Below are positions 6,141-64,000 of a stretch of 64,000 bases of DNA, piece after piece. The notes beneath the pieces were generated by a model. The model was not told where the DNA came from. It made no database searches and saw only the letters and a program-made list of their open reading frames with translations. Both the position numbers and the translations under genes were made by a program. This DNA is from Candidatus Woesearchaeota archaeon. GTDB lineage: Archaea > Nanobdellota > Nanobdellia > Woesearchaeales > GW2011-AR4. The stretch is from contig JAGVXT010000022.1 in NCBI GenBank assembly GCA_018303655.1, positions 2,633 through 66,632 of the forward strand, written 5' to 3'. Position 1 is the stretch's first letter; the number at the start of each line of letters is the position of its first letter.

Positions 6141-6160
6141 TTTGGTATAGATTTTCATAG

Positions 6161-9665: not shown

Positions 9666-9675
9666 AATATTAAAT

Positions 9676-10189: not shown

Positions 10190-10337
10190 TGGTGAAGCAT
10201 TTTGAAGTGATTCTTATGACAAGACGATTAGATACAAGAAATAGCTGGATTACTCTGCAAACTTTGCCTAAATGCAGGTACAAGTGCTTCAGAAGGCAGA
10301 GATAGGCTCCTGCATTTTTCATTTTTATTAGTTACTT

Positions 10338-25994: not shown

Positions 25995-26354
25995 ATTGAT
26001 TACTATGCCAGCCAAGATCAAAACTAATGGCAGTATAGCAGCATGGTATTTAAGATTTAATCCAGCCAATCCCAAATAATAGCTAACTATCCCAATTAAG
26101 CCTGCTGCTAGGACTATTCCAATAATAAATCTCTCTGTGAAATCAATCTTTTCCATCCAATAAAGCATCATAAAATAGCCAGGCAATGCAAACAGCCAAA
26201 ACAATGATAAAACAAGCCTAAATAATACAACCAGATTTTCCTTAAAAAACACAACCCTGAATATCACTAAGAATACTAAGAACAGCAACCCAATATATTT
26301 CAACTCTTTTTTCATTATGTCAAAAGCTTCTTTCCTCAATGCAATCTCCTCCAA
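25983..26354 (-). CDS. Small 4-TM membrane protein coupled to the upstream GT-C-like gene
   Basis: Overlaps 26320-27957 by 35 nt. FALPGYF...EKIDFTERFIIGIVLAAGLIGIVSYYLG resembles 25647-25994. Confidence 0.5.
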   Translation of the reverse strand: MEEIALRKEAFDIMKKELKYIGLLFLVFLVIFRVVFFKENLVVLFRLVLSLFWLFALPGYFMMLYWMEKIDFTERFIIGIVLAAGLIGIVSYYLGLAGLNLKYHAAILPLVLILAGIVINLKK

Positions 26355-27957
26355 CCTTATTATTTTTCAGTATGATCACAACATCGTTCTCAAAAACCTT
26401 TTGAGAGCCTCTTTTCAGCATATCATTTGCTATTAATAAGTTATAATCCGCCAAAATCTTTTGCCTGCTGGCCTTGTCAAATATAAAATAATCAAAAATA
26501 CATACATCAAATGAATCACCCCACATTATGTAAGTTTTGGCGTTATCCTCTACTTGATGCAGGCCGATATTTAAAAATGATTTTTTATAAGGCATTCCTG
26601 CTCCATGGTCAGCAGGCACCTCGCTTGTGTATACCCTTTTAACTGATCTGTTTTGCAGAGCCGCGAAAAAATCCTGCGGAACAACCTGGGCATGCGTCCT
26701 TTTTGAATTCCGCAATATCGCATCCTGGTCATAAACGTCGCCGTAAAAAAAATACAGCCTTGCGCCTTTTGGAGTGTTCTGGCCCAGCCACTGGAAAGCC
26801 TGCCAGTGCCATGGATCCATAAGCCCTGAAGAGGAAATTTTGTAATAAGTGGGAATATTTGGCACCGGAATGATATTTGACAATAAAAGCATAATAGCAA
26901 TGCCTGTTCCAAAAACAGAAATTGACCTGAATGCCGAAGGAATAAGCTTGATTAATGCATACAGCCCCATCCCAAAGAAGAAAGAAAAGTAAACCGGCCA
27001 AAGCAGCCTTGGCTGGAATGCCCTTATTCCAAACCCTATATAATTAGTGTAGCCAATGCCCAGCATGTACAACCCAGCTATGACTGGCACATCAAACTTC
27101 TTTAACAGCATAAAGCCTGAAACAACTCCTATCATCATGAAAATAAGCAGCAGTTTGAAGTCTGTCAAATAGAAAATTGGAGTTCCGCCCCAGTCATTTG
27201 AAATTTCAAAATGGTAAGGGTTTATGATGGCAAAGCTTTTGGTAAAGATGAATATAGTGTAAAATGACACTACTCCAGATATAATGCCCGCAATTGAGAC
27301 CTTCTTCACGAATTTTAAGTCAAATTTCCTGAAAAACAGCAGAAATATAGCATAAACAAAAATGAATCCAACGCCATATACCAATTCTGATGTATGCGAT
27401 AATGCAAGAGCGCCTATGAATATCCCAAGCAAAATCTCGGATTTGGATAATTCTATCCTGCTTACGGACCAAAATATGCAAATAAGGAACAATTGCCCGG
27501 TTATTGATGCCCAGTGCCCAAATAAAAAGCCTATGTAAGATTTGCTTGAAAACAGCAGGATGGACAATGGCAAAGACAACATTGCTATTTGTTTGTTGAA
27601 TGTGCGAATCAAAATATACATGACAAATGATGATAATATTGCGCTTAAAAAAGCCATAAAGTATATTGTGTCATAGAGGGGAATGCCTGACGAGAAATGA
27701 AGAATAATCCCCAAATGATGAATAACAGAAGGATAGTAGCCTATTACATCCTGGTAGCCTTTTACTATGTAAAAAGGCTCAAGCCTGTAATTTCCAGCGT
27801 CCTTAATTCCTTCTGCCCTGGTTTGCTGCTGGAAGGTGTCAGAAGCCATGTATCCATATGGGAATTCATGCTGCAGCCTGTGGTCCCAAAGTGTTGAAAC
27901 ACCTAAAAATAGCAATGCGCCGAAAACAACTGCCAAATATGGTTTTTCCAGATTCAT
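26320..27957 (-). CDS. Polytopic membrane protein, putative GT-C-type glycosyltransferase
   Basis: 545 aa. First loop has YMASDTFQQ, then about 12 TM segments and a soluble C-terminal domain. Same length and layout as 24026-25666. Confidence 0.5.
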   Translation of the reverse strand: MNLEKPYLAVVFGALLFLGVSTLWDHRLQHEFPYGYMASDTFQQQTRAEGIKDAGNYRLEPFYIVKGYQDVIGYYPSVIHHLGIILHFSSGIPLYDTIYFMAFLSAILSSFVMYILIRTFNKQIAMLSLPLSILLFSSKSYIGFLFGHWASITGQLFLICIFWSVSRIELSKSEILLGIFIGALALSHTSELVYGVGFIFVYAIFLLFFRKFDLKFVKKVSIAGIISGVVSFYTIFIFTKSFAIINPYHFEISNDWGGTPIFYLTDFKLLLIFMMIGVVSGFMLLKKFDVPVIAGLYMLGIGYTNYIGFGIRAFQPRLLWPVYFSFFFGMGLYALIKLIPSAFRSISVFGTGIAIMLLLSNIIPVPNIPTYYKISSSGLMDPWHWQAFQWLGQNTPKGARLYFFYGDVYDQDAILRNSKRTHAQVVPQDFFAALQNRSVKRVYTSEVPADHGAGMPYKKSFLNIGLHQVEDNAKTYIMWGDSFDVCIFDYFIFDKASRQKILADYNLLIANDMLKRGSQKVFENDVVIILKNNKVGGDCIEERSF

Positions 27958-33691: not shown

Positions 33692-36235
33692 ATGAAAATA
33701 AAAATTTTGCAGATACTGGCAATAATATATTTTTTATTGATTTTTTTAATACTGAAAGCACACAGCATTTACCCTCTTATTTTTCTTATTGCAGCGTTGC
33801 TCATAGATAACTTCACAAAAATAAGAAACGGGATAAAAAATCTCTTTTATGTGACTGCGGCACTGTCCGTTTTTCCAAGCGTATTGGGCATTTTTTTGCT
33901 TTACCTGCCTTTTTGCGTGTTTGGGGCTTTGCTGTCAAAAAGAAGCTTTCTCAGAAATTATATATTTGCATTTGCCCTTTCATTCATACCGGTAAACATC
34001 ATCTATTTCGTAACAACCTACTTTTCAGTGCCATTAAGCTATCCTGTCATATTCCTTATTTTTTATTCCATTCCAATTGTCGGAATTATTCTGCTGAGAA
34101 CAAAGGCATTTGATTATATTGAGGTAGAAAACAGCGAATGCATCTGCATATTTATAGTGCTTTTTTTCACGGGCATAATAGCTTCGGGCATAATTGACGA
34201 TAAAAGCCTTTTCATGGCCAATGGCGTAAGGATTTTCACAAGAGTCCAGATTGCTGTTGAAGGGCTAAACAACAATGGATTGGTTCCGATATACAACCCA
34301 GGAATTGCAATGGGAGAGGCAACTTACCTGTGGAATGCGCCGTCATTCAAGGTTCATGCAGCCATAAATGATTATCTGCTCCAGCCCAAGTCGCACATAC
34401 ATTTTTTTAACTCATTGTCATTCTTTATTCTGCTTCTTTCCACCCTGTCTTTAAGCATATTATTCCGGTCAATAATAAATCAGGAAGAAACATATTCAAA
34501 TATGCTGATGGTTTCATCAGTTGCAGTCCTGACCGGGCTCAATTTCTATTTTTTGCAGATGCTTGAGAGCTTTAAGGCAAATTATCTTTATCCGATGGCG
34601 TACCTTTTTTTAAGCATAATACTTGACAATCCCAAGAAGTACAATGACTATCTGATCCTGATGTATTTTTCAGCGCTGTTCATCATCATTCACCTTCCCT
34701 ATGGCAGCGGGGTGCTCGTGATTGGGGCATGCCTATTTTTAATTACTAAAATTTATTATTTAAAAGACAAATCAGAGTTGCTTCATTTTTTCAATTGGGC
34801 AGTCAAAAATAAACTTATTATTACGATTACAATTGGCGTCATCTTATTATTTCCGATTTTCTACCTGTCGTCTGGGATTATTTACAAGGAATTTATTTAC
34901 CAGGAATTTGACACTACTTTGGGCCAGAAGATAACTATTGGCTCTGTAATATCTGAAAGCGCTAATTTTTTCAAGGGGTTTTATGGCAGGTCTAAAGAAT
35001 TTTTTTCAATAAAATATCCTGATGTCAACAGGATAGATGACCATAAAATAGGCTTTTTCCTCTCAGTTTTTGGGCTCTTATCCTTTTTTCTGCTGTTTGC
35101 ATTTTATAAGCTGGAACGGGCCGGAAAATTCAGGATATTTGCATTGGCATTTCTGCTGAACTTATTTTTATCCTCCTTGTTTTACAACAGGCTTAGCATA
35201 CTGCTTGGCGGGTTTTTCAGAACAACTCTTCCGTACCTTTTGATATTGATGGGTGCTTCGATCCTGGCATTTACATACCTGTTTAAAAATAAGCACATCA
35301 AGTATTTTTTGATTATTGCAATATTTATTGCCTTTATCCACACAATTCCGTATGCAAAGCAAAACATAAACAATATCCACAAGGAATATTTTGCAGGCGG
35401 GGACGTGTATAGGGAAGAAATTGAATTCATAAAAAAACTGCCTGCGGATGGAAGGATACTGACCTATGGGCTGTTCAACAATGCAGTTGATTTTGGAGGA
35501 AACTATCTCACAAAGGGATATTTTTCAAGGAATGAGCGATACGAGCTTGTTCTCGTCAGGACTCCTTTTGAGAAGGTTCACGGCCAGAATTCATTTGGAG
35601 ACGCGGAAATTATTCTAAACAAATCAGGCACTGAATTATCAAATTACCTGATAATAGGGGGATACAAATACTTATTCATTAATGCCTGCCATCCCATAGG
35701 AAACTACGTTGTTTCAGTACTTTACCCGAATTTTACATACCCAATATACCAAAATGGCTGCCTGCTGTTTTTAATTGTTAACAACACAAATTACATAGAA
35801 AAGGCGGAATTGGCAAAAAATGCTCCTGATGGAATATACAAGCAAAAAGACGGGTACAAATACATCACTCTAAGCACATACTACAATTTTGACAGAAACT
35901 TAAATTTCAGGGAAACTCCAAAAAAGCCGGAGGCGTTAAAGTTCCAGAGGCCATCGCCCACAGAAATCCAGATATCTGGAAATTTCGAAAAAGACGATTT
36001 TGTCGTGTTCAAGGAGCAGTACTTTGCCAGATGGAAGGCTTACATGAACAATAAGGAAGTTCCTGTGATGACAACTGCACAGGAAATGGTATTGATCAAA
36101 ACAGACAAAGGAAATAATATCCTGCTGAAATATATGGTTCTTCCAAAAGAAAAAATATTTGGCGTATTGTCACTTATCGCCCATCTGGGTTTGATTATTC
36201 TTTTTATTTATTTATTAAGGCAATCTATTTTGTGA
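33692..36235 (+). CDS. Large polytopic membrane protein, putative GT-C glycosyltransferase with YfhO-like C-terminus
   Basis: 847 aa with more than 14 TM segments. C-terminal YFARWKAYMNNKEVPVMTTAQEMVLIKTDKG plus a final TM mirrors the tail of 31293-33602. Confidence 0.45.
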   Translation: MKIKILQILAIIYFLLIFLILKAHSIYPLIFLIAALLIDNFTKIRNGIKNLFYVTAALSVFPSVLGIFLLYLPFCVFGALLSKRSFLRNYIFAFALSFIPVNIIYFVTTYFSVPLSYPVIFLIFYSIPIVGIILLRTKAFDYIEVENSECICIFIVLFFTGIIASGIIDDKSLFMANGVRIFTRVQIAVEGLNNNGLVPIYNPGIAMGEATYLWNAPSFKVHAAINDYLLQPKSHIHFFNSLSFFILLLSTLSLSILFRSIINQEETYSNMLMVSSVAVLTGLNFYFLQMLESFKANYLYPMAYLFLSIILDNPKKYNDYLILMYFSALFIIIHLPYGSGVLVIGACLFLITKIYYLKDKSELLHFFNWAVKNKLIITITIGVILLFPIFYLSSGIIYKEFIYQEFDTTLGQKITIGSVISESANFFKGFYGRSKEFFSIKYPDVNRIDDHKIGFFLSVFGLLSFFLLFAFYKLERAGKFRIFALAFLLNLFLSSLFYNRLSILLGGFFRTTLPYLLILMGASILAFTYLFKNKHIKYFLIIAIFIAFIHTIPYAKQNINNIHKEYFAGGDVYREEIEFIKKLPADGRILTYGLFNNAVDFGGNYLTKGYFSRNERYELVLVRTPFEKVHGQNSFGDAEIILNKSGTELSNYLIIGGYKYLFINACHPIGNYVVSVLYPNFTYPIYQNGCLLFLIVNNTNYIEKAELAKNAPDGIYKQKDGYKYITLSTYYNFDRNLNFRETPKKPEALKFQRPSPTEIQISGNFEKDDFVVFKEQYFARWKAYMNNKEVPVMTTAQEMVLIKTDKGNNILLKYMVLPKEKIFGVLSLIAHLGLIILFIYLLRQSIL

Positions 36236-44055: not shown

Positions 44056-44547
44056 CTATTGATTTCTATAAGCGTCAAGAATCCTGCTTATCAGCCCTGT
44101 TGTGGAGTATCCTTTTTCCACTTTGGCGATTGCAATTTTTCCGTTATTTTTCTCTACAACACCTTTCTCAATAATCTGATGGATTTTATAATCCCCGGCT
44201 TTCACATGAAAATCAGGCTTTATCTTTTCCAGCCATTTTACAGGATCATTTTCATCAAAAAGGAAAACAAAATCAACGCTTTCCAATGCAGCCAGCACAA
44301 AAATTCTTGACTTTTCATCATTAATCGGCCTCTTGTCGCCTTTGTTTATCTTTACAGATTTGTCTGTGTTGACCCCAACAATTAAAAAATCCCCAAGCTT
44401 CTTTGCCTCCTCAAGATATTTAACATGCCCAAGATGGAGAATATCAAAAACGCCGTTTGTTGTCACAATTTTTTTATTTTGTTTTTTTAGTTTATTGACT
44501 ATGGGAATTAATTTTTTTAATGTGATGATTTTTTTATTGATTGTCAT
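44056..44547 (-). CDS. hldC: D-glycero-beta-D-manno-heptose 1-phosphate adenylyltransferase (RfaE domain II type)
   Basis: KIVTTNGVFDILHLGHVKYLEEAKKLGDFLIVGVNTD. Cytidylyltransferase-fold HxGH motif at stand-alone size (163 aa). Confidence 0.8.
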   Translation of the reverse strand: MTINKKIITLKKLIPIVNKLKKQNKKIVTTNGVFDILHLGHVKYLEEAKKLGDFLIVGVNTDKSVKINKGDKRPINDEKSRIFVLAALESVDFVFLFDENDPVKWLEKIKPDFHVKAGDYKIHQIIEKGVVEKNNGKIAIAKVEKGYSTTGLISRILDAYRNQ

Positions 44548-45064
44548 TTTTAACTATCCATTTGGCAGCTTCCATCAAGTCCTTAGCTATGAAATCAGGC
44601 TTGGCCTCTTTTATTGTCTTTTTTCCGTCACCAGTCAATACAAGTATGGATTTGCAGTTCGCATTTTTTCCTAATTCAACATCGGCTTTTTTGTCCCCAA
44701 TGACAAAGGATTTCTTCAAATCTATCCTGAATTTTTTCTCTGCAACCTTTAAAAATTTTGTTTTTGGCTTCCTGCAGCTGCAGTTATCTTCCGGCTTGTG
44801 CGGGCAGTAATATGTTTTTTCTATTTTTATGTTGTGTTTTTTCAATTCAGCTAAAACTTCTTTATTATAATTGAAAAACTCCTTTAGTGTAAAAAAGCCC
44901 TTTCCTATGCCAGACTGATTTGTGACTATGAATATTTTAAAATTTCTTAATAGCTTCAGGCCTTTAACCGCATTTGGCAACAGCTTGAAATCCCCTATTT
45001 TGTGGGCATATCCAATGTCATGCGTGATTGTGCCGTCCCTGTCGATAAAAACAGCTGCTGTCAT
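44534..45064 (-). CDS. gmhB: D-glycero-D-manno-heptose 1,7-bisphosphate phosphatase
   Basis: AVFIDRDGTI, VTNQSGIGKG, CPHKPEDNCSCRKP (Zn loop) and GDKKAD. HAD-IIIA GmhB signature. Confidence 0.85.
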   Translation of the reverse strand: MTAAVFIDRDGTITHDIGYAHKIGDFKLLPNAVKGLKLLRNFKIFIVTNQSGIGKGFFTLKEFFNYNKEVLAELKKHNIKIEKTYYCPHKPEDNCSCRKPKTKFLKVAEKKFRIDLKKSFVIGDKKADVELGKNANCKSILVLTGDGKKTIKEAKPDFIAKDLMEAAKWIVKNDNQ

Positions 45065-46035
45065 AATTCCTCAATTCCCCTTTTGATTTCCTCAATGCTG
45101 ACAGAGGCGGTCCCTATTTTCCCGACTTTTATTCCGGCTGCAATGTTTGCTATTACTGCAGCCTCCTCAAGGCTTGCTCCTGATGCAAGCGCAAGCGCTA
45201 TCGCGGCAACAACAGTGTCGCCTGCGCCTATTAAGCTGTAAACTTCCTTGGCTTTTGCAGGAATATGCACAACCTTTCCGTCTTTCTCGAACAAAGACAT
45301 GCCTTTTTCCCCCCTTGTGATCAAAACATTTGAATTAAGGTATTTCATAAGCTTGGGGCCCATCTCCAATACAGCATCGTCGCTGCCATCCTCAATGCCT
45401 GTCATCTCGCTTGCTTCTGCATTATTTGGAGTAATCAAGGTAGCATTTGAGTAAAGATCCCTGTGCTTTGGCTTTGGATCTACTATCACAGGCTTGTTGC
45501 TGCTCCTTGCCATTTCAATAAGCCTGCCGCACACAGCTTGATTTATAACGCCCTTTGCATAGTCGGAAATAACCACAACATCCACATCTTTGATTGCATT
45601 TTCTAGAAATTTTACCATATCTTTTTCTATATTTTGATGGATATTATCTTTCTTTTCATAGTCAACCCTCAGCAGCTGCTGGCTTCTTCCGACAATTCTC
45701 ACTTTTTGAGTTGTTGGCTTGTCGGCGTCGATAATAATTCCATCTGTGTTGACGCCCATGCCCTTCAATTCCCTGATAAGAATATTTTTTGCTTCGTCAT
45801 TTCCCGCAATGCCTGCCATGTAAACTTTTCCGTTTAGAGCAGATGCATTGCTTGCAACATTGGAAGCGCCACCAGGCGCATATGTTTCTTTTGATACATT
45901 TACAACCTGAACAGGGGCTTCAGGGCTTATCCTTGAGACATCCCCCCAGATGTATTTGTCAAGCATGATGTCGCCTATTACGAGGATTTTTTTATTTTTA
46001 AAATTTTCCAGTATTTTTAACAGCCTTTGCTTCAT
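45061..46035 (-). CDS. hldA: D-glycero-D-manno-heptose 7-phosphate kinase (RfaE domain I type, PfkB family)
   Basis: ILVIGDIMLDKYIWGDVSRISPEAPVQVVNV, GGASNVASN and GAGDTVVA. Confidence 0.8.
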   Translation of the reverse strand: MKQRLLKILENFKNKKILVIGDIMLDKYIWGDVSRISPEAPVQVVNVSKETYAPGGASNVASNASALNGKVYMAGIAGNDEAKNILIRELKGMGVNTDGIIIDADKPTTQKVRIVGRSQQLLRVDYEKKDNIHQNIEKDMVKFLENAIKDVDVVVISDYAKGVINQAVCGRLIEMARSSNKPVIVDPKPKHRDLYSNATLITPNNAEASEMTGIEDGSDDAVLEMGPKLMKYLNSNVLITRGEKGMSLFEKDGKVVHIPAKAKEVYSLIGAGDTVVAAIALALASGASLEEAAVIANIAAGIKVGKIGTASVSIEEIKRGIEEL

Positions 46036-46036
46036 T

Positions 46037-46948
46037 TCAAATCCCCTCCATTACCGCCCTGTGCAGTGTTGGAACTGTTTTTTCATGCTTTTCAATGATT
46101 ATAAATCCTTTTCCCCCCAATGAAGTCGGCCTCTGGACAACATTCTCCCTTGGCCTGTAATGGTCTATCATGTCAAAGTTTGCCGCTGTTATGTTTTCAA
46201 CTTTATAGCCAAGATTTCTTGCGATTGTCAAAGCTTTTAGAAAAACTTCCGGCAGTATTACAGCGCAGCCTATGTTTAATATGACACCGCCTTCCATCCT
46301 GCTTACGCTTTCTGCAAAAATTTTAAAATCTTTATATGAAGTCTTTCCGACAGCAGCGCCGTCGCAGCTGGGATGCTGGTGTATAATGTCAGTTCCGATT
46401 GCAACATGCACAGTAACTGGAATATTTAAGTTGTATGCATTATATAAAATGCTGCATTCCTTGTTTGGAAGATTTAAATCGCTTATTTTCTTTCCAATGG
46501 AATAACCCAAGCCATAATTATTTTCAGCGCCTTCCTTGATTGCCTCATTTAGCATTCTGCCGGTTTCCTCTATCATTCCAAATGTGCCGTATTCAATTGT
46601 CTGCTCAACATATTCTGAAGTTTCTCCAATCAAAGCCAATTCAAAATCATGGATTGGGCCTGCGCCGTTCATTGCAATGTGCTTTATAACCCCTTTTTTC
46701 ATCAGGTCAATTATCAAAAGGCTCATGCCTACCTTGATAACATGGGCTCCCATCATCAGGATAATTTGCTTTTTGTTTTTGTAAGCATTGATTATATGAT
46801 TTGACAATTCATTGAACTCTTTTGTATTTATCAAAACTTTAGAATTTTCAGGCTTGATCAAATCATTCAATTTTACCTTATTTTTCCTTTTTTTTATGGA
46901 GATTGTTTTTATCCTGCTGAAGTCAAGCATTTTTATCACTTTTTCCAT
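46037..46948 (-). CDS. Conserved-looking protein of unknown function embedded in the heptose operon
   Basis: 303 aa and soluble, with MMGAHVIKVGMS, NGAGPIHDFELALIG and HVAIGTDIIHQHP. Only a vague resemblance to the deoxyhypusine-synthase-like Rossmann fold by eye. Ends 1 nt before the hldA start. Confidence 0.4.
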   Translation of the reverse strand: MEKVIKMLDFSRIKTISIKKRKNKVKLNDLIKPENSKVLINTKEFNELSNHIINAYKNKKQIILMMGAHVIKVGMSLLIIDLMKKGVIKHIAMNGAGPIHDFELALIGETSEYVEQTIEYGTFGMIEETGRMLNEAIKEGAENNYGLGYSIGKKISDLNLPNKECSILYNAYNLNIPVTVHVAIGTDIIHQHPSCDGAAVGKTSYKDFKIFAESVSRMEGGVILNIGCAVILPEVFLKALTIARNLGYKVENITAANFDMIDHYRPRENVVQRPTSLGGKGFIIIEKHEKTVPTLHRAVMEGI

Positions 46949-47187
46949 TTTTGTAATATAAGCATAAAAATAATTATGGCGATAAATATAATCGCGGTTA
47001 TTATTATCAACAATTTTTTTCTTAATAATAGAGATGTTATCAGCAATAATATATCAATGATTAGAATCAAATCTAGGTAAAAAATAGTTTTACCCTTTTC
47101 GTACGAGTCGACTAAAAATCCAACTTCTTTCCAAACCATTTTATTAAAAAATCTATCTTTTTTATTTTCCAAACAATTCTTTTTCAA
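46936..47187 (-). CDS. Small membrane protein
   Basis: 83 aa with two hydrophobic segments. Overlaps both neighbours in the same-strand gene string. Confidence 0.35.
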   Translation of the reverse strand: MKKNCLENKKDRFFNKMVWKEVGFLVDSYEKGKTIFYLDLILIIDILLLITSLLLRKKLLIIITAIIFIAIIIFMLILQKWKK

Positions 47188-47728
47188 CTAATTCACAAAT
47201 AATATGTCCTGCTAGCATGTAACCCTCCTGAATTCTTGGAGTATCATTGGAGGGTACATTTAAACAAATATCTACTTTATTTTTCAATACTCCCCCACTT
47301 TTGCCTGTAAATGCAACAGTGATTCCTCCTAACTCTTTGGCTTTCTCTATTCCTTTAATTACATTCTTTGAATTACCACTTGTGCTAATTCCTATTACAA
47401 TGTCTCCTTTTTTTACAAATCCCTCAACCTGTTTTGCAAACACATCTTCATAATCATAATCATTTCCTATAGCAGTTAAGCTTACATTATCAGTCAAAGC
47501 TATTGCAGGAAGAGATTTTCTGTTGAAATAATAACGAGATACAAACTCAGTTGCTAGATGCATACTATCAGAACAGCTGCCGCCATTACCAAATAAAATA
47601 ACTTTGCCATCATGTTTATAGCAATGTATAATCGTTTCCGCTATTTTTTGTACCGTTTCTTTGCTCCCTGATAGTCTCTCTATTGCTTCTTTATGTTCAT
47701 TTATTCTTTTTAGTATTAAATCTTCCAT
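47162..47728 (-). CDS. gmhA: Phosphoheptose (sedoheptulose-7-phosphate) isomerase
   Basis: SIS domain with GKVILFGNGGSCSDSMHLATEFVSRY and GISTSGNS. MEDLILKRINEH at 47728 matches the usual GmhA N-terminus. Confidence 0.85.
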   Translation of the reverse strand: MEDLILKRINEHKEAIERLSGSKETVQKIAETIIHCYKHDGKVILFGNGGSCSDSMHLATEFVSRYYFNRKSLPAIALTDNVSLTAIGNDYDYEDVFAKQVEGFVKKGDIVIGISTSGNSKNVIKGIEKAKELGGITVAFTGKSGGVLKNKVDICLNVPSNDTPRIQEGYMLAGHIICELVEKELFGK

Positions 47729-48254
47729 TTTTAATGTCCTCCAATATTTTATCAACATTGGCTTTTGGCTTTATGATTATAAACTTTAAGTTATTCTTCC
47801 TATACACTTCTAATTTTCCTTTCCAATCTTCTTCTGTTTCCTTACGCATGCCATCTACTTCTATAAAAACATCATTAACTAAGAAGTCTGCATATTTTGT
47901 GGAATTTGGTATGTGTGGATGTATGATGTGTCTCAAGTTATGCTCTGTTAATTTCTCGTCAACCCACAATTCCAGAGACGAATAACACAAGTGACCATCT
48001 GAAACGGTAGAATAAGTTCCGAAGCCATAAGTTCCGCTGTTTACCCACGGTTCCATATATTTTCTTGCTAATTCAGGATGATTTTTAATCCACTCTTTCT
48101 TCTTTTGACTTATTCTTTGTCTAATTGTTTTTAGGCTTACCGTAGCCGACCTTTGAGTTTCAAAGGGAAAAACATAATGAGCGAAAAAATCACATTCTAG
48201 GTGATTAGTAAGTTTAAATACTTTGTCCGCAGATGTCCAGTGGTATGCTAACAT
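47697..48254 (-). CDS. PD-(D/E)xK (Vsr/DUF559-like) nuclease-fold protein
   Basis: SSLELWVDEKL...YADFLVNDVFIEVDGM fits the S-x-x-E ... D-F ... (I/V)E(V)DG core of DUF559/Vsr-like endonucleases. Its 3' end overlaps the gmhA start by 32 nt. Confidence 0.4.
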   Translation of the reverse strand: MLAYHWTSADKVFKLTNHLECDFFAHYVFPFETQRSATVSLKTIRQRISQKKKEWIKNHPELARKYMEPWVNSGTYGFGTYSTVSDGHLCYSSLELWVDEKLTEHNLRHIIHPHIPNSTKYADFLVNDVFIEVDGMRKETEEDWKGKLEVYRKNNLKFIIIKPKANVDKILEDIKNGRFNTKKNK

Positions 48255-50379: not shown

Positions 50380-51273
50380 CTATTGATTCAGGAAGAACTT
50401 TCTTTCAATAAATTTGTTCAGTTTCTTCAGGATCTTCGGCTCCCTTTTAAGAAAGAAGCAGCTGAATGTGTTGAATATTCTGAAAATCTTCGGTTCGTTT
50501 TTTAGGAAGAAAAAAATGTCCTTGTCCAGCAGCTTTTGCCCTTCCTTAAAAAAAGCGCCAGCCTCCACCATTGATATTCTGCCATGGCCTAATTTGGCCT
50601 CTTTCAGCAGTTTTTTCCCAATAAGATGTTTTTCAAGATTTGACAAGAGGGTAAAAAATACCACATACTTCACATAAAAAGTAATTTCATCTTCGTATTC
50701 TTTATCGCTGTCAACTATTTTGCCCCTGATTTTTTTCATGTACCTGTATGGCACTCCGTGCATCTGCTCAATGTAGTGGACAAAAGTGCAGGACTGGAAT
50801 GGCGCGCCAAAAAATATTATTTTGCCGTTTAGCTTGTGGAGCTTTCCAAAAATGGAGTCATTGCCAAATGTGTCTTTTCCTATTCTTAATAGCTCACTCT
50901 TGTATTTGCCCCACACAGCCACCGAATGATCTGCATGAGTTGTTCTGCCGACATCAGGCAGCTTTCTAAAATATTCAGTAAGAATGCCAACTTTTGATTT
51001 GGAATTTGCCATGTCGTAAGGCTTGTTTTCTGTGAAGCTGTAAGTAAAGGTCGGCATTATTATTGTTCCAGCGCTACCGACGCTTTCTTTGAGAGTGCCT
51101 ATCAGTGTTTTCAGAAGAAATGCCGCATCAAGTGTTGATAGCTTTCCAAATGCAGAAATGTCAGAGTGTACAAAAAGGATATCGCCTTTTTTTATTCCGC
51201 ATCTCCTAAGAGCCTTGGCAATATCGGCTTGATATATACACCTCTCATTGGCTTTGTATAATGGTTTCATCAT
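50380..51273 (-). CDS. AAC(3)-family (Antibiotic_NAT-like) acyltransferase
   Basis: IKKGDILFVHSDISAFGKL, GTIIMPTFTYSF and FVHYIE. Layout of aminoglycoside 3-N-acetyltransferase-like proteins. Confidence 0.55.
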   Translation of the reverse strand: MMKPLYKANERCIYQADIAKALRRCGIKKGDILFVHSDISAFGKLSTLDAAFLLKTLIGTLKESVGSAGTIIMPTFTYSFTENKPYDMANSKSKVGILTEYFRKLPDVGRTTHADHSVAVWGKYKSELLRIGKDTFGNDSIFGKLHKLNGKIIFFGAPFQSCTFVHYIEQMHGVPYRYMKKIRGKIVDSDKEYEDEITFYVKYVVFFTLLSNLEKHLIGKKLLKEAKLGHGRISMVEAGAFFKEGQKLLDKDIFFFLKNEPKIFRIFNTFSCFFLKREPKILKKLNKFIERKFFLNQ

Positions 51274-56320: not shown

Positions 56321-59300
56321 TTAAGAATTATTTGTTTTGTTTTGTGTCAGGTTTATGCTTCCGATCACAGTTTCTTCCTTGACCGGAGCGTTCAGGATAT
56401 TTACATAATCTTCAACAATAGCCGGATTTCTGCCTTCCCAATCCACTTTGTAAATATATATGTTTGTTCCAGTCAATCCGCGCTGGTGATTAAATAACTT
56501 GAAATATCTGAGGCCGTGGCCCTGCATGTAAAACATTCTCGTGAACATTGAGCCTGTTAATTCATTGCTTGATATGACAACATCAAGCTCATTTTCATTT
56601 TTTGGTATTACAGTCATGCCAAAGTCAAGGGTACTGCCGTTGAAACTCTTCTTAATAAAGATGCCACTTTCTGTTGTGAATGCAGCTACTTTAGGCCTTA
56701 TAATGCCTTGCTGGCCTACTCCAAAAATATCATAGTTGCTTAGGTTTACCTGAAGGCCGTTGCCGCAAACATAAACCTCTTGAGTGTTTTTGCTGCAGCT
56801 AGTAGTGCCTCCATAACCAGGCCATGGAGCAACCCATGTATTGGCCTCGCTGTCACTTGATATAGCCTGTATTTCAAAATAAATGTTTTCAGCCCTTTCT
56901 TTTGTGTAATTGAATTTATCCATCATATATCCAACAGCCTTCTCTTGGGACATTTTTTTTGCATTAAACCATATGTCAGCCCTTTCAAAATTCCAGCTGC
57001 CAAAATGGCTCCATACGCCGCTTTTGCCAATCATGTCTTCTGAGGCTATGAAATAAGCTTCCGGCGGCTCACAGTGCGTGAAAGAAAGAATTTTTTCAAT
57101 TTGTTTTTCATTAAATCCGAATGATTTTAGTTTTTTTTCCGCTTCTTTTTTATTCATTAATATGATTTGATTTAATATTTTTAATGATAGATGAGTATCG
57201 TTATTGGCCTCATATAGTGTATTGAAAGCTTTATTGCTTCCGCAGTCAAGCATTCTTAAAATAGCCACAGCTTCTGATTCGTTTTGTGACATTAGCAGCT
57301 TTCCAACCCAGTGCGCAGGAGGGTGGGTTTGGGTAGTCCCGTCAAATGTGACTCTTCTTTCAGCAATAGATTTGAAGTGGTGCCCAAAATCCCACCACGA
57401 TGTTATAATTGCATTTTCGCTTGAGTTTTGTTTTATTGCAATCAAGGCGTTATACCAAGCGTCATTGATGATTGGTATGTCAGCTCCGGCACTGCTGACA
57501 GCGCCCCTAATAGGATTGGCGTACATCAAAAGCAATAATGCAATCAAAATGACACTGCTTATAATTTTATGAATTTTTAGCTCTTTGGTCAGCACGCTTG
57601 ATAGATAAACATAGATTTTTCCAAGAGCAGCCCCAAATGCAACGCTGAAGGCAGGAGCAAGCAATAGGGTAAATCTTATGCCCTTGATGCTTGCAAAAAT
57701 CGTCGAGACTATCCAGAGGGACAACAATAAAGAAAGTTTGAAATCATAGGATGAGTCTTTTTTATAGACTGAAATTCCAATTCTTATAAAAATGGGCAGC
57801 ATTATCCAAACCAACAAACCGAAAACAGATAGGTCAAACCCAATCCTTCTGAGTAAAAAGTACGAGCCATAAAAAATAATTGTGCCGATTATGTAAAAAA
57901 AATCAAACCTTCTTATCCCTCCAGTCATGGATATTGCCAGAATCAAACCAAGCAAGCTTATAAAAAAAAGAAATTGGCCCCCTATTGAATTTATAATCCC
58001 ATCAATTGATCCCTCATTTAATTCCGCAACAGTTGTAAGCACATTTGGCCATAATGAAGAACCGCCAACTGGATCTTTAATTGACGGAAAGCTTAATGGT
58101 CCCAGAAAGCTTTTTCTAAATGTGCGCCATCCTGAAAATAGAACAATAAATGCCAGTGTTGAGAGGAAATAAAGAAAACCCACTATAATTATATTCCTAA
58201 CGGCGGTGTTAGAACTCAATACTCTGGGGTTTCTTTTTATTTCACCAAAGTTTATCAGAACCAAATATAAAAATGTTATTCCAATAGTTGCCAGCAAAAA
58301 GTCAAATATATACCACCATCCGCTCCATGCCAATGTAAACAATCCCGTCATAAACCCGGCAAGCAGGGATATAGCCGCGATTTTTAAAGTGTTTTTGGCG
58401 TCTATTGTTGTTACAAACAGCCAAGTTATCATCAATGGAAAAAATATAACCCATATATCATTGTCAGGATGAAGGGACCTTGACAAGAAAGCGCCATTAA
58501 CAGCCATTATCATTCCAGCAAAAAATCCTCCAATATTGCCGGCGATCTTTTTTGCAATTAAAAATACAAGCAACACGCATAAAGCTGAAAAAAATATTAC
58601 TAGGAAAAAACCAGAGCGGATTAATGACAGGTCAGGCATAAAAAAATGAAGGAATTTGTAAAAATAAGCCCATGAATACGAATGGAACGTGTCGGGATAT
58701 ACAAATCTTCCAAGAGGGGCTAATTGCAGATTGTCAAATGATTTGCCGTCTTTCAGCACATCACCAGGGTGTCCATGCTCAACAATATTTTCTGCATACC
58801 TGAGCCAGTAATATGGATCGATGTCGGGCATGTAGTTCTTTCCGTTTTCATCCTGGAAAAATGCCTTGAAGTATTGAGATGTTGCCTTGACCTGCTGGTC
58901 AATCTGCGCTTTGTTTTGGGTTAAAATCTTCTGCAGCTCCGTATCAACAAGCGCATTTTTGTTTGCATCAGGCAAGTTTGGATATTGCTGGTCGATCGAA
59001 GACATTATTTGGGACTTAATTCCATTTATCACGCTGTTCGCAGCCCAGTCATCGGTTACAGGCAGGAATCCGGCCTGCATCCTGACGTAGATTGAAAGGA
59101 CTATTGGAATAAGCGCGATAAAAATAATGCCGTATTTTTTGAAGAAGTCAATAACTTTGCCCCATTCTATTGCTGTATCATCCTCTTCATTTCCAGCTTC
59201 TTTTTCACCGGATTTAAAAAATTTTTTAACTTTGTCAAAGTCAAAAGACAGCTCCATGTTTTCGTCGTCTTTTGCTGTGTGGCTTGCTTTTGTTTCCTCT

Positions 59301-59479
59301 TTTTTTTCACTCTTAAAGAAACTTTTTACCTTGCCAAAGTCAATGGATATTTCATCATCTTCTTTTTTTTCAGCCACCGAGATTTCTTCTTCTTTCTTCT
59401 CCTCTTTCTTATCGCTCTTAAAGAATTTCTTTATTTTGCCAAAGTCGATAGATATTTCTTCATCTTCTTTTGAATCCAT
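56321..59479 (-). CDS. aglB: Archaeal oligosaccharyltransferase, STT3/AglB family
   Basis: 1052 aa. Repeat-bearing N-terminal extension of about 115 aa, then a 13-TM-like core, the ITSWWDFGHH (WWDxG) catalytic motif, and a large C-terminal soluble domain. Confidence 0.85.
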   Translation of the reverse strand: MDSKEDEEISIDFGKIKKFFKSDKKEEKKEEEISVAEKKEDDEISIDFGKVKSFFKSEKKEETKASHTAKDDENMELSFDFDKVKKFFKSGEKEAGNEEDDTAIEWGKVIDFFKKYGIIFIALIPIVLSIYVRMQAGFLPVTDDWAANSVINGIKSQIMSSIDQQYPNLPDANKNALVDTELQKILTQNKAQIDQQVKATSQYFKAFFQDENGKNYMPDIDPYYWLRYAENIVEHGHPGDVLKDGKSFDNLQLAPLGRFVYPDTFHSYSWAYFYKFLHFFMPDLSLIRSGFFLVIFFSALCVLLVFLIAKKIAGNIGGFFAGMIMAVNGAFLSRSLHPDNDIWVIFFPLMITWLFVTTIDAKNTLKIAAISLLAGFMTGLFTLAWSGWWYIFDFLLATIGITFLYLVLINFGEIKRNPRVLSSNTAVRNIIIVGFLYFLSTLAFIVLFSGWRTFRKSFLGPLSFPSIKDPVGGSSLWPNVLTTVAELNEGSIDGIINSIGGQFLFFISLLGLILAISMTGGIRRFDFFYIIGTIIFYGSYFLLRRIGFDLSVFGLLVWIMLPIFIRIGISVYKKDSSYDFKLSLLLSLWIVSTIFASIKGIRFTLLLAPAFSVAFGAALGKIYVYLSSVLTKELKIHKIISSVILIALLLLMYANPIRGAVSSAGADIPIINDAWYNALIAIKQNSSENAIITSWWDFGHHFKSIAERRVTFDGTTQTHPPAHWVGKLLMSQNESEAVAILRMLDCGSNKAFNTLYEANNDTHLSLKILNQIILMNKKEAEKKLKSFGFNEKQIEKILSFTHCEPPEAYFIASEDMIGKSGVWSHFGSWNFERADIWFNAKKMSQEKAVGYMMDKFNYTKERAENIYFEIQAISSDSEANTWVAPWPGYGGTTSCSKNTQEVYVCGNGLQVNLSNYDIFGVGQQGIIRPKVAAFTTESGIFIKKSFNGSTLDFGMTVIPKNENELDVVISSNELTGSMFTRMFYMQGHGLRYFKLFNHQRGLTGTNIYIYKVDWEGRNPAIVEDYVNILNAPVKEETVIGSINLTQNKTNNS
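59135..59470 (-). repeat. Four degenerate repeats (D/E-rich spacer plus [S/E][IF]DFGK[IV]K.FFKS) in the AglB N-terminal extension
   Basis: EISIDFGKIKKFFKSDKKEE / EISIDFGKVKSFFKSEKKEE / ELSFDFDKVKKFFKSGEKE / AIEWGKVIDFFKKYG. Confidence 0.7.
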
Positions 59480-60788: not shown

Positions 60789-60920
60789 GATTTTGGGGAA
60801 TATTTATTGTTTATATAGCTAATGCCAAGCATGTCCAAATTATAGCTGATTTTGTACCTACTATCCAATAACGAAAACTTTAAAAAGGGGTATATACTAC
60901 CAGTAAGCGTTGGGGTCATA

Positions 60921-62609
60921 ATGAATATTAAAACCATTGTTTTGGGAGCATTTTTGCTTGTATTAATAGGATTATTCAGCCCTATTGCCAATGCCGATGT
61001 TTTTGGCGATGCATCTGATGTTTCTATAGACAGAGTAAAGGCAAACGGCAAGTCTCTTGCTGACGGCAGGACAAACTTCCTTGAGGATGAAGATGAGATT
61101 GACATTCAGGCAAGCCTGACTGCTACAGAGGACATAAGCAATATGCATGTTGAGGCTATTCTGACTGATTTAACCACAGGCAACACGGTTGCTGACTCAA
61201 CGGGCACTTTTACATTGAGGACAAACCAGAGCACTCTGGTGGCTTTGAACCTGAAGCTTATTGACTTACTTAAAAGGCAAAAAGACTTCAGGCTTGAGCT
61301 AAGGATTGTTGATGTTGAAGGAGGCATAGAGCAGAAGTCTTATGGAATAAAGTTTACAGGCGCGGGAGGCGCAGGCGCAGGGGCAAGGGGCACAGAGGAG
61401 CTTGATGTTTCAATAGATAGCGTGCAGCTGGAAAACAATGCTCTTGCAGAGAATGAAAACAACTTTGTAATAATTGACAAGGGCAGCAGAGAGCTTGATT
61501 TGAAGGTAAGGCTTACATCGCTTGGAAACATTGAGGATGCCCATGTTGATGCTGTTCTTGCCTTTGAAAACGGCGATGTTGTTGCAGATGCAACTCTCAC
61601 ATTTGACATTGCAGATGGCGAAAACACATTCAAGGACCTTGAGCTGCCTTTAATCGGCAAATTTGAGCAGAACAGCTTTAAACTTAAGGTAAAAGTTACT
61701 GATGCAGAGGGTGATTCAGAAGAAAAGTTATATGGACTGAAAATAAGCCAGAAAAAGTTTCCTTTTGTCATAAGCAGCGTTGAATTAATGCCGGATAATG
61801 CAGAAGCAGGCAAGAATCTTATCGCAAGAGTAATTTTCAAAAACAGCGGGGTTGTTCCGCTTGAGGGAATCAATGCGAAAGTAAGCATTCCCGAGCTTGG
61901 AATTTCATCCACAAAATTTGTTGACCAGATAAAAAATAGCGGGCTTTTTGAAGTAAGTGAAGACTTCATACTAAAAATTTTGGACAGCACGCCAACAGGA
62001 ACATACACTTTAAGGTCTGAAATTGCCTCGCAGTTTGGAGGCGACAGCGAAGTCAAGGAACTGCCTGTTTTTATTGTTGGCAAAGGCGAGCAGGGCATGC
62101 AGATAGTCAATGACAAATTGGTGATTAATATTCCGATAGTAAAGCAGGACATTTATAATGACGGCAGCGAAGTCATCTATCCGATTATATTGACAAATGA
62201 AGGGCATGACTCAAACGCATACACCCTATTGATGGACGGCGCAAGCTGGGCTGATTTGAGGCTAAGCGAGTCAAACACATTCATCTTAAAGCCAAAGGAA
62301 TCAAAGACAATAAACATTTTTGCCTCGACAAATGCAGATGCAACAGGCGAGCAGATATTTTTAACAACAGTCAAAAGCAATGACAATGTTTTGAAGCAGA
62401 TCCCGCTAAAAGGAAATGTTATTGCCGCAAAGGGCCTGTTGGCTGCCAGGCTCAAGGGCGTCTTGGAAACAGCATTAATAGCCATTGTAATTTTCCTTGC
62501 TGCTATAGGCTTGTTTTTCGGAGTTAAAAAATACATGGAGAGCAATGGCAGCGAAGAAGCAAGCGATAAGGAAGTTGCAACCATAGAAAGCGAACCTTAT
62601 TATTACTAA
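60921..62609 (+). CDS. Secreted, C-terminally anchored surface protein with repeated Ig-like modules
   Basis: Signal peptide MNIKTIVLGAFLLVLIGLFSPIANA. Two similar modules of about 115 aa (DVSIDRVKANG.. / DVSIDSVQLEN..). C-terminal TM ALIAIVIFLAAIGLFFGV and an acidic tail. Confidence 0.65.
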   Translation: MNIKTIVLGAFLLVLIGLFSPIANADVFGDASDVSIDRVKANGKSLADGRTNFLEDEDEIDIQASLTATEDISNMHVEAILTDLTTGNTVADSTGTFTLRTNQSTLVALNLKLIDLLKRQKDFRLELRIVDVEGGIEQKSYGIKFTGAGGAGAGARGTEELDVSIDSVQLENNALAENENNFVIIDKGSRELDLKVRLTSLGNIEDAHVDAVLAFENGDVVADATLTFDIADGENTFKDLELPLIGKFEQNSFKLKVKVTDAEGDSEEKLYGLKISQKKFPFVISSVELMPDNAEAGKNLIARVIFKNSGVVPLEGINAKVSIPELGISSTKFVDQIKNSGLFEVSEDFILKILDSTPTGTYTLRSEIASQFGGDSEVKELPVFIVGKGEQGMQIVNDKLVINIPIVKQDIYNDGSEVIYPIILTNEGHDSNAYTLLMDGASWADLRLSESNTFILKPKESKTINIFASTNADATGEQIFLTTVKSNDNVLKQIPLKGNVIAAKGLLAARLKGVLETALIAIVIFLAAIGLFFGVKKYMESNGSEEASDKEVATIESEPYYY

Positions 62610-62677: not shown

Positions 62678-63643
62678 ATGAAAAAAACAAAAAAAATATT
62701 AACGGTTTTTGCCATATTTTTATATTTTATCAGCTTTGCCTATGCCCAAGATTTTGCATTATTCTCCGGCAAATTTTACGGCTTAAAAGACGGGAAGCAA
62801 AAAATAGAATTTGAATTCTACAATGGAACTTATGACATCTGTGAAAATGAGAAAAAAACAATACCAATCCTGATTGTAAATAATGCAAACAGTGACGATA
62901 ACTATTCCTTAAGCGCATCTGGCGTTGGCTGGGCGGTTTTTAATCTTAAGGAATTTTCATTGCCAAAAAAGCAGGATGGAATTATATTTCTTGAATTAAG
63001 GCCAACTGCAAATGCAAAAGGCAATTACTATATTGGTGTAATTGCATTCTCTTCAGAAGGCATCAGGCAAAATTTGCTATTCAATATTAATGTAAACAGA
63101 TGCTATTCTTTGAGCTTGGAGCTTGAAAAAGAAAAAGACAAGGTTTGCGGCGGCATAAAAAAGCAATATAGTGGAGAAATAACAAATGCCGGGGAACAAG
63201 AAATTAGCGTTGAATTAAGTTTAAAGAGCCCGAACTGGATAAGCTTAGACAAAAATATTATTTCTGTTGTTGCAAATAACACGCAATACTTCAGGCTAAA
63301 TGCAGATGTGCCGGCAAACGCAAAAGGCATTTTTGATGTCATTGTAAATGCCGCAATAAAAAATCCGCCGTCAATAAATGAAGAAAAAAGACTAAGCATA
63401 GAGGTTGTGCCTAAATACGACTGCTATAAAGCCGATGCTTTAGCTGAAGATAGCGTTTATTCAAAAAAGATTGATGTAGTTTTAAGCAAAGAAAATAAAT
63501 TTCTGAAAGGAGCGAAATCATTTTTTGTTTTTTATAAATTTTATTTGATAAGCGGAATTTTAATATCATTGTTTGTCATATTTTTAATTGAATTCTACAG
63601 GCCGATGTTTAAATTGCTGAAAAGCATAGGCAAGAAAAAATAA
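62678..63643 (+). CDS. Secreted, C-terminally anchored surface protein
   Basis: Signal peptide MKKTKKILTVFAIFLYFISFAYAQ, a beta-rich middle, and C-terminal TM FYLISGILISLFVIFLIEF plus a basic tail. Confidence 0.6.
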   Translation: MKKTKKILTVFAIFLYFISFAYAQDFALFSGKFYGLKDGKQKIEFEFYNGTYDICENEKKTIPILIVNNANSDDNYSLSASGVGWAVFNLKEFSLPKKQDGIIFLELRPTANAKGNYYIGVIAFSSEGIRQNLLFNINVNRCYSLSLELEKEKDKVCGGIKKQYSGEITNAGEQEISVELSLKSPNWISLDKNIISVVANNTQYFRLNADVPANAKGIFDVIVNAAIKNPPSINEEKRLSIEVVPKYDCYKADALAEDSVYSKKIDVVLSKENKFLKGAKSFFVFYKFYLISGILISLFVIFLIEFYRPMFKLLKSIGKKK

Positions 63644-63644
63644 G

Positions 63645-63821
63645 TGGGGGCGCGGCGACTTGCATGCGCAAGCATGCTCGCTTGCAACAATTTGAACGCC
63701 GATCCGACGGTATAGCCCGTTTTTCCTTTCATTGGGATATTCCTCAAAGCTCCAAACGACTGGAGCCGTCTATACTAGCCAGGATGTACGGATTTTTTAT
63801 AGTCCATTATACTACGCCCCC
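63645..63821 (-). tRNA. tRNA-Trp(CCA): tRNA-Trp (anticodon CCA) interrupted by three putative introns (D-loop, 37/38, T-loop)
   Basis: The reverse strand reads GGGGGCG TA GTAT AATGG[about 24 nt]CTA GTAT A GACGG CTCCAG[48 nt]A CCGTC GGAT CGGCG TTCAAAT[32 nt]CGCCG CGCCCCC A. It has a 7-bp acceptor stem, U8, A14, GG, A21, U33, G53:C61 and discriminator A. No CCA is encoded. Confidence 0.7.
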
Positions 63822-63846
63822 GTCAGAATCAGAATTAATTAGCGTT

Positions 63847-63854
63847 ATTTAAAA
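63847..63854 (-). promoter_or_regulatory. Candidate archaeal TATA box of the tRNA-Trp gene
   Basis: The reverse strand reads TTTTAAAT 26-33 nt upstream of tRNA position 1, which is the canonical archaeal spacing. Confidence 0.45.
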
Positions 63855-63864
63855 GTTGTTGTTT

Positions 63865-64000
63865 TTATTCTAAAATTATGACGTTGTCTAACCCCCTAAA
63901 ATGACTGTCGCCTGATACTAAAACAGCATTATTCAGCAAAGCAGAGCTATATATCAAACTGTCTACTGTATGCAGTTTATGGCGAATAGAAATTGTGGCT
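63865..64000 (-). CDS. PIN-domain (VapC-like) protein, C-terminal 44 codons; the rest lies outside the window
   Basis: The reverse frame gives ATISIRHKLHTVDSLIYSSALLNNAVLVSGDSHFRGLDNVIILE*. The D-S-L-I..A....A.LV(S/T).D..F pattern is the C-terminal acidic motif of PIN toxins. Confidence 0.5.
   Translation of the reverse strand, partial: ATISIRHKLHTVDSLIYSSALLNNAVLVSGDSHFRGLDNVIILE

Follow-up and report, generated by a model that had tools for sequence, protein, structure and literature searches.

A tRNA-Trp(CCA) gene of a woesearchaeal archaeon, very probably interrupted by three introns of the bulge-helix-bulge type

Near one end of the 64 000-nt stretch of Candidatus Woesearchaeota contig JAGVXT010000022.1 analysed here (the window, to which all coordinates refer unless another contig is named) lies a 177-nt segment in which standard gene finders detect no tRNA. 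It raises the question of whether the segment encodes a working tRNA-Trp(CCA) and, if so, how three insertions would be removed from the transcript. A preliminary description, made from the DNA alone, had proposed an archaeal tRNA-Trp(CCA) interrupted in the D-loop, at position 37/38 and in the T-loop, and this proposal is borne out by orthologous genes, by a syntenic relative (L147), by covariation and by bulge-helix-bulge (BHB) motifs at the junctions. Judged from sequence comparison, the locus is very probably a tRNA-Trp(CCA) gene that is interrupted by three BHB-type introns and belongs to a member of the Woesearchaeota (DPANN) in the Rifle aquifer. Multi-intron archaeal tRNA genes are an already known kind, and they are common in the Woesearchaeota lineage.

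The gene and its orthologues

The gene occupies the minus strand (63821–63645), and removal of the three insertions leaves a 74-nt tRNA-Trp(CCA), one nucleotide longer than the 73-nt product first proposed. With the insertions in square brackets it reads GGGGGCG UA GUAU AA[UGGACUAUAAAAAAUCCGUACAU]CCUGGCUA GUAU A GACGG CUCCAG[UCGUUUGGAGCUUUGAGGAAUAUCCCAAUGAAAGGAAAAACGGGCUAU]A CCGUC GGAU CGGCG UUCAAA[UUGUUGCAAGCGAGCAUGCUUGCGCAUGCAAG]U CGCCG CGCCCCC A. Exon 1 (tRNA 1–15, GGGGGCGUAGUAUAA; 63807..63821, minus strand) supplies the 5′ strand of the acceptor stem, U8 and A9, the 5′ strand of the D-stem and A14 and A15. Exon 2 (tRNA 16–37; 63760..63783, minus strand) contains the remainder of the D-loop (CCUGGCUA), the 3′ strand of the D-stem (GUAU), A26, GACGG and C32 U33 C34 C35 A36 G37, and exon 3 (tRNA 38–59; 63691..63711, minus strand) continues with A38, CCGUC, the 4-nt variable loop GGAU, the 5′ strand of the T-stem (CGGCG) and UUCAAA. 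Exon 4 (tRNA 60–73; 63645..63658, minus strand) adds U60, the 3′ strand of the T-stem (CGCCG), the 3′ strand of the acceptor stem (CGCCCCC) and A73, with which the gene ends; the CCA end is absent from the gene sequence. The acceptor stem read in the sequence is thus GGGGGCG/CGCCCCC with discriminator A, the anticodon arm is GACGG-CUCCAG...A-CCGUC and the T arm is CGGCG-UUCAAAU...CGCCG.

The spliced cloverleaf has stems of 7, 4, 5 and 5 bp and a 7-nt anticodon loop (C32 U33 C34 C35 A36 G37 A38), and the mature D-loop is AACCUGGCUA. The nucleotides of the tertiary core (U8, A14, G18 G19, A21, the G53:C61 pair and the T-loop UUCAAAU) are all present in the 74-nt product and are nearly invariant in 54 orthologues. 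The A73 discriminator together with G1:C72 constitutes the archaeal/eukaryal Trp identity set, and the spliced gene shows both. A TATA-like promoter box (TTTTAAAT; 63847..63854, minus strand) lies at −33..−26 from tRNA position 1, and an oligo-T run (TTTTTT; 63635..63640, minus strand), a likely archaeal terminator, follows 5 nt past the discriminator. An A/T box starting at −24..−40 is found in 53 of 70 orthologues and a T-run (at least four T, no more than 20 nt downstream) in 54 of them; in L147 the box is near-identical and the run identical. The 177-nt minus-strand segment, its acceptor stem and arms, the upstream box at 26–33 nt and a 62-aa open reading frame (ORF) across the locus had all been described before as we find them. 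This ORF, on the opposite strand at 63664–63852, is explained away by the tRNA gene.

ARAGORN (default settings, intron option or relaxed threshold) finds no tRNA in the unspliced DNA, and neither does Rfam, at its gathering score or at E ≤ 10. On the spliced product, ARAGORN reports tRNA-Trp(CCA) for all 37 variants of the D-loop junction. Aligned with free introns to a profile built from the orthologues, the gene scores 93.0 bits; the best of 80 non-tRNA control loci that start with the same 15-mer reaches 47.0 bits, and 60 shuffled sequences average 26.5 with a maximum of 43.0. The identical gene, T-loop insertion included, is present in all five independent assemblies that were fetched and is therefore not an assembly artefact. 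We rejected a split or permuted tRNA gene, because the four exons are colinear within 177 nt and share a single promoter and terminator. Alternative registers of splicing in the anticodon loop, which would give a CUA (amber suppressor) anticodon or U37, were also rejected, since all orthologues read CUCCAG|...|A. A search of the window by T-loop motif gave no plausible further hidden tRNA.

Orthologues were collected by scanning metagenome contigs for exon 1 (GGGGGCGTAGTATAA; 119 loci) and, with a pattern that also included the D-loop, species-representative genomes (44 loci), and the free-intron profile alignment resolved these into 70 distinct tRNA-Trp genes, nearly all of them of Woesearchaeota type. 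Of the 44 genome records, roughly half bear Candidatus Woesearchaeota, Nanoarchaeota or Nanobdellati in their titles. Most of the others are third-party metagenome-assembled genomes (MAGs); around twenty of these (L125, L132, L133, L139–L145 and others) carry the same tRNA-Trp family under the title 'uncultured Methanosarcinales archaeon', which may be a taxonomic mislabel. Candidatus Woesearchaeota MAGs are the closest relatives, and the archaeal origin that had been proposed for the contig is confirmed. Among 54 distinct spliced sequences, 95.0% of the cells of the cloverleaf are paired, compared with 42–53% when the partners are slid; eight pairs have changed on both sides (103 cells), none of 500 shuffles attains the covariation score of the real alignment, and compensatory change is seen in four of the five pairs of both the anticodon stem and the T-stem. 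The variable loop has 4 nt in every parsed orthologue.

The family varies in its number of introns: four of the 70 genes have none, 41 have one, 15 have two, seven have three and three have four. Two or more introns thus occur in 25 of 70 orthologues and three or four in ten, the window gene among them, so that the rarity first ascribed to such an arrangement does not hold in the Woesearchaeota lineage. The intron sites are 15/16, two near the 3′ junction of the D-loop with the D-stem, 37/38, 45/46, 53/54 and 59/60. The Rfam tRNA model matches the intron-less relatives tested and three of four single-intron relatives (41–72 bits), and none of the six tested relatives with two or more introns.

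Three relatives, L135 (JACPMQ010000081.1), L013 (CEPX01070094.1) and L074 (Ga0209541_10144228), parse as genes with four BHB-type introns each. Those of L135 lie at 15/16 (18 nt), 37/38 (42 nt), 53/54 (28 nt) and 59/60 (30 nt), with 4/4, 3/4, 4/4 and 4/4 pairs, respectively, in the central helix. A literature search found no archaeal tRNA gene with four introns, and no comparison of tRNA-Trp genes with zero to four introns at seven or more sites.

Splice junctions and competing explanations

The closest view of the insertions comes from L147 (JACPMT010000064.1, Candidatus Woesearchaeota archaeon NC_groundwater_556), which is syntenic with the window over ~8 kb at 70–81% nucleotide identity. 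The tRNA locus itself is ~98% identical from promoter to terminator (window 63630–63865, L147 6475–6678), with complete (100%) identity in the exons and in the D-loop intron and 94% identity in the 37/38 intron. In this comparison the intron sequences themselves appear to be constrained. The sole gap in the locus is the 32-nt T-loop insertion, in place of which L147 reads CGGCG UUCAAAU CGCCG, an exact empty site. Either a gain of the 59/60 intron in the lineage of the window gene or its precise loss from L147 could account for this difference.

Intron-less orthologues (L044, L052, L133, L167 and L012) read GUAU AACCWGGCUA ... UUCAAAU, with AA|CCUGGCUA in the D-loop; comparison with these orthologues fixes all three junctions. 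The D-loop insertion, for which ~24 nt and an ambiguous junction had been given, is indeed present and proves to be 23 nt long, at 15/16; the first UGG is intronic and the second corresponds to G18 G19. A D-loop of AAUGGCUA, which would keep the first TGG, is rejected both by these orthologues and by the BHB rule, each of which gives AA|CCUGGCUA. The length of the T-loop insertion stands at 32 nt, and of the two junctions considered for it (59/60 or 60/61) the orthologues settle on 59/60. The 48-nt insertion after G37 is read directly in the sequence, as proposed, and agrees with CUCCAG|...|A in the orthologues.

The BHB geometry that we used has two 3-nt bulges 4 bp apart, which is the standard geometry (PMC4033280), with a cut after the second nucleotide of each bulge. 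At the canonical site C32 is placed opposite the third-last intron nucleotide. The central 4-bp helix is denoted H, the outer helix on the exon side h and the helix within the intron h′. More than 60 of the family's canonical introns conform to this rule, with the anticodon stem as h, and at the D-loop and T-loop sites it coincides exactly with the homology-derived junctions. Folding of these two junctions, suggested as a check in the preliminary description, yields BHB motifs with H of 4/4 at the D-loop and 3/4 at the T-loop.

Intron 1 (UGGACUAUAAAAAAUCCGUACAU, 23 nt; 63784..63806, minus strand) takes the relaxed HBh′ form at 15/16. H is formed by G10–U13 with GUAC, the bulges are AA|U and AU|C and h′ is GGA/UCC, without an outer helix h. 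H is complete (4/4) in 15 of the 16 orthologues with a 15/16 intron. The h′ helix co-varies, with two to four pair types at each of its first three pairs, and its variants include GGAU/AUCC, GGGC/GUCC, CCAU/AUGG and CUAAA/UUUAG, among others.

Intron 3 (UUGUUGCAAGCGAGCAUGCUUGCGCAUGCAAG, 32 nt; 63659..63690, minus strand), in the T-loop at 59/60, shows a complete hBHBh′ motif. The 5-bp T-stem serves as h, H pairs U54–A57 with UGCA (3/4, one U.C mismatch), the bulges are AA|U and AG|U and h′ (UGU/GCA) runs into the 6-bp hairpin GCAAGC/GCUUGC, which had been recognized from the outset. Eleven genes, the window gene and ten other orthologues, carry an intron at 59/60; the H pairs form in 8–11 of them, and the last pair co-varies (A57:U, G57:C), while the introns of different relatives mostly cannot be aligned with one another. 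The 53/54 introns of relatives have H of 4/4 in all four genes that contain them. A search of the window, the fetched loci and viral contigs turned up none of the three introns a second time, so that there is no evidence for transposition.

Intron 2 (48 nt; 63712..63759, minus strand), at the canonical 37/38 site, has a relaxed hBHBh′ form. The anticodon stem provides an h of 5 bp, the bulges are AG|U and AU|A, h′ is CGUUU/AAACG (5 bp) and the 5′ bulge is well formed. The 3′ end GGCY-AW|A, with a co-varying h′, is common to nine unique genes including that of the window, and h′ has 5–8 bp in eight of the nine (3 bp in L152). The element UGGAG, originally taken to pair with CUCCA as in a canonical BHB, is not that partner: the canonical motif pairs positions 32–35 with the 3′ end of the intron, and UGGAG, at a distance of 5 nt from the 5′ splice site, forms a hairpin and not a helix beside the 3′ bulge. 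An alternative BHB within intron 2 (H AGCU:GGCU, h UGG:CCG) was rejected because it gives no valid product.

From these features we infer the following course of transcription, cleavage, ligation and methylation. Transcription would start downstream of the TATA box (−33..−26) and stop at the oligo-T run. Each insertion would fold with its flanking exon into a BHB-like motif (HBh′ at 15/16, relaxed hBHBh′ at 37/38 and hBHBh′ at 59/60), which the tRNA splicing endonuclease would cleave after nucleotide 2 of each 3-nt bulge. An RtcB-type ligase would then join the four exons, and post-transcriptional addition of CCA would lead to the 74-nt tRNA-Trp. Within the 37/38 intron, the guide UGGAGC and a kink-turn (K-turn) of box C′/D′ type would direct L7Ae, Nop5 and fibrillarin to 2′-O-methylate C34, with the guide hairpin competing with the 37/38 BHB fold.

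Several observations weigh against removal of all three insertions in this way, or against the guide. The lack of an outer helix at 15/16 means that the endonuclease would have to be of broad specificity. At 37/38 H has only two of its four pairs (C34:G and C35:G), C32.U and U33.C being mismatched, and this places the 3′ splice site in a 2×5 internal loop and not in a 3-nt bulge. The conformer with all BHB motifs is at about −43 to −47 kcal/mol, compared with −63.2 kcal/mol for the minimum free-energy structure, mainly because of the stable hairpin GCUCCA/UGGAGC. The K-turn of the window gene is a variant (UUGA/AAUGAAA, with a marginal 2-bp C stem or a 4-nt bulge). None of 51 window ORFs encodes a splicing endonuclease, an RtcB-type ligase, L7Ae, Nop5 or fibrillarin. 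Finally, a second, intron-less tRNA-Trp gene may exist elsewhere in the genome; ~74 kb of the 111-kb scaffold was covered.

This last point, together with the degenerate 37/38 BHB and a T-loop insertion whose absence from L147 makes it evolutionarily recent or dispensable, would suit a decaying pseudogene that has been inactivated by its insertions (at least by the recent one in the T-loop) while another tRNA-Trp gene does the work. We regard such decay as improbable. Exons, promoter and terminator are essentially identical to those of L147 despite flanking coding DNA of only 72–81% identity, which indicates purifying selection; excision of the T-loop insertion restores a perfect T-loop, and the insertion has its own BHB with H of 3/4, h of 5 bp and h′ of 9 bp. 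Introns at 59/60 recur in ten other orthologues, and the gene is fixed, being identical in five assemblies. Each of the 44 representative genomes has a single locus, which also speaks against a second gene, if weakly, as the search pattern was restrictive and the MAGs are incomplete.

The missing outer helix at 15/16 and the 2/4 central helix at 37/38 could alternatively mean that the gene is functional but that at least one insertion is not removed by the BHB endonuclease, being either a retained expansion or a segment lost by another route; the BHB conformer is not the thermodynamic optimum. This seems very unlikely, since the tertiary core that the D- and T-loops form together would not survive an extra 23 nt in the D-loop or 32 nt in the T-loop, since all of the junctions obey the same geometry as more than 60 of the family's canonical 37/38 introns and since the relaxed D-loop HBh′ motif belongs to an experimentally cleaved class of substrate (PMC5829648). 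As for a chance resemblance in AT-rich intergenic DNA, or the coding sequence of the plus-strand 62-aa ORF, standard tools find no tRNA and the ORF does span the region; however, comparison of the sequences has already refuted this explanation, as the gene scores 93 bits against a control maximum of 47, has 70 orthologues with compensatory changes and is matched by an exact empty site in L147. Thus, a gene with three BHB-type introns remains our preferred explanation.

A candidate methylation guide in the 37/38 intron

Rather than a BHB element, UGGAG would fit a guide for methylation of C34. The element UGGAGC (63749..63754, minus strand) is complementary to G31–A36, and its G at 63752, the fifth nucleotide upstream of a D′-like box, pairs with C34. 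In box C/D RNAs the methylated nucleotide pairs with the fifth guide position upstream of the D-type box, and on this rule UGGAG corresponds to a box C/D-type methylation guide. The box belongs to a K-turn of box C′/D′ type (63727..63747, minus strand) that consists of a D′-like UUGA (63747–63744), the hairpin GGAAUAUCCC (63743–63734) and a C′-like AAUGAAA (63733–63727).

The same arrangement recurs in the family. GGAG, followed after exactly 2 nt by NUGA, is found in 62 of 64 related 37/38 introns; the box is mostly AUGA, with CUGA in seven introns and UUGA in the window. The order NUGA, short hairpin, RAUGA holds across the 64 introns, and position 1 of D′ co-varies with position 6 of C′ (A–U in 36, U–A in six and C–G in five; none of 10 000 permutations matches this), the K-turn of the window gene being of the U–A type. 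L024, L108 and L127 are example carriers of the motif UGGAGC, N, NUGA, hairpin, RAUGA. The 48-nt intron of the window has one K-turn only, without a second box pair, and no conserved complement to position 39 was found in the 37/38 introns. The guide hairpin and the 37/38 BHB both use U68 and are therefore mutually exclusive. On balance, these patterns tip us slightly towards regarding the intron as a reduced, single-K-turn box C/D guide directed to C34.

Three further observations concern these introns. Introns of ~80 nt (L127, L138, L142, L148 and L154) seem to have a second K-turn-like hairpin near the 3′ end; C34 lies opposite A in the BHB central helix of 31 of 61 introns; and a search of the L127 intron against Rfam gave 14 sub-threshold non-tRNA matches, nine of them to C/D-box families and none significant, and a permissive Rfam search of the window itself yielded nothing of use.

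A wider proposal is that the woesearchaeal tRNA-Trp gene is a live hotspot of BHB-intron turnover and, at the same time, that its canonical intron is a minimal single-K-turn guide for 2′-O-methylated C34 (Cm34). We put this combination forward tentatively and consider it doubtful as a whole. The relatives with four introns may be the first four-intron archaeal tRNA genes. If the intron is such a guide (guide, D′, hairpin and C′ in this order), its C box and guide may become contiguous only after the excised intron circularizes.

Genomic setting and known systems

The tRNA gene sits between a gene for a 321-aa protein and a PIN-domain gene that runs off the end of the window. The 321-aa gene is present on 16 public contigs, and the places listed for it are all Rifle-aquifer-type groundwater (ENA ERZ28563625 scaffold_287, the 111-kb scaffold; JGI 3300002502; three Logan assemblies). 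A contig from the JGI sample of the window (L008, C687J35174_10372675) contains a different tRNA-Trp start, with the same 15-mer followed by an apparent 15/16 intron at the contig end, and presumably stems from another Woesearchaeota population of the same aquifer sample. The PIN-domain gene (129 aa) and a preceding 66-aa ORF share the strand of the tRNA gene and immediately precede its promoter (63865–64000 onward; L001 11188–11761); they look like a VapBC-type toxin-antitoxin pair.

Nearly all of window positions 1–60800 is a cluster for cell-surface glycans and glycosylation. It includes AglB/STT3 (56321–59479, minus strand), a sulfatase (1327–3195), an Antibiotic_NAT-family acetyltransferase (50380–51273) and a heptose-activation set (SIS isomerase, PfkB kinase, cytidylyltransferase and HAD phosphatase; 44056–47758, minus strand) beside GT9 heptosyltransferase-like genes, as well as GT2/GT4/GT9 and PMT_2-type transferases, sugar epimerases/dehydratases, a DegT aminotransferase, a C-methyltransferase and an FkbH-like protein. 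Five large ORFs (787, 1389, 545, 847 and 585 aa, in regions 16448–22967, 26320–27957, 33692–36235 and 60852–62609) have no Pfam match at E ≤ 0.001 and may be surface proteins of this cluster. The G+C content rises from ~31–32% in the first 12 kb (1–12000) to 39–42% around 36–46 kb, and GC skew tracks gene orientation.

The findings on the tRNA gene do not overturn current understanding. The gene may be the organism's only tRNA-Trp gene, yet it is missed by ARAGORN and Rfam, and genes missed in this way make the tRNA sets of DPANN genomes appear incomplete, as has been reported. The window and L147 provide a clean pair with and without the T-loop intron, and the 70 orthologues form a natural series on the gain and loss of BHB introns and on the endonuclease relaxation that this needs. 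The conserved K-turn and C34 guide, if real, would mean that the intron-encoded methylation guide of tRNA-Trp known from Euryarchaeota also occurs in DPANN, there greatly reduced in size.

Multi-intron tRNA genes are best compared with those of the Thermoproteales (Sugahara et al., 2007/2008; Fujishima et al., 2010; reviewed in PMC4033280), for which up to three short BHB introns per gene, non-canonical sites including the D- and T-loops and escape from standard finders are likewise characteristic; rapid gain and loss of introns is common to them and to the family of the window gene. A 2014 review gives three introns as the maximum per archaeal tRNA (PMC4033280). The Thermoproteales are Crenarchaeota, whereas the window gene comes from a DPANN/Woesearchaeota genome, transposition between tRNAs is not evidenced for it and some of its relatives have four introns. 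Within DPANN, disrupted tRNAs and endonucleases of relaxed specificity have been described, namely the epsilon2 enzyme of ARMAN (PMC3239211) and the alpha4 enzyme with an L3 loop of Pace- and Woesearchaeota (PMC5829648); multi-intron tRNAs have been reported there, including from one Woesearchaeota genome, and linked to endonucleases that have an extra loop, and undetected disrupted tRNA genes are expected (PMC5829648). The window gene resembles these in superphylum and in its multiple and non-canonical introns, although its endonuclease is not encoded in the window.

A closer parallel for the splicing substrate is the pre-tRNA-Glu(UUC) of Methanopyrus kandleri, which combines a D-loop HBh′ motif with a canonical intron and is cleaved experimentally by a broad-specificity endonuclease (PMC5829648). 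The window gene shares the relaxed D-loop HBh′ motif and the 37/38 intron, but encodes another tRNA in another phylum and has a third intron in the T-loop. For the candidate guide, the counterpart is the euryarchaeal tRNA-Trp intron, which encodes a box C/D RNA guiding Cm34 and Um39 (PMC3326292, PMC11408192) and is known from Haloferax volcanii and Pyrococcus (Clouet d'Orval, 2001; Singh, 2004; cited from PMC3326292 and PMC11408192). Both introns occupy the same site of the same tRNA, and in both a complement of the anticodon loop places C34 beside a K-turn box. The H. volcanii intron is 105 nt long, with two box pairs and a guide for position 39, whereas that of the window gene has 48 nt, a single K-turn and variant boxes.

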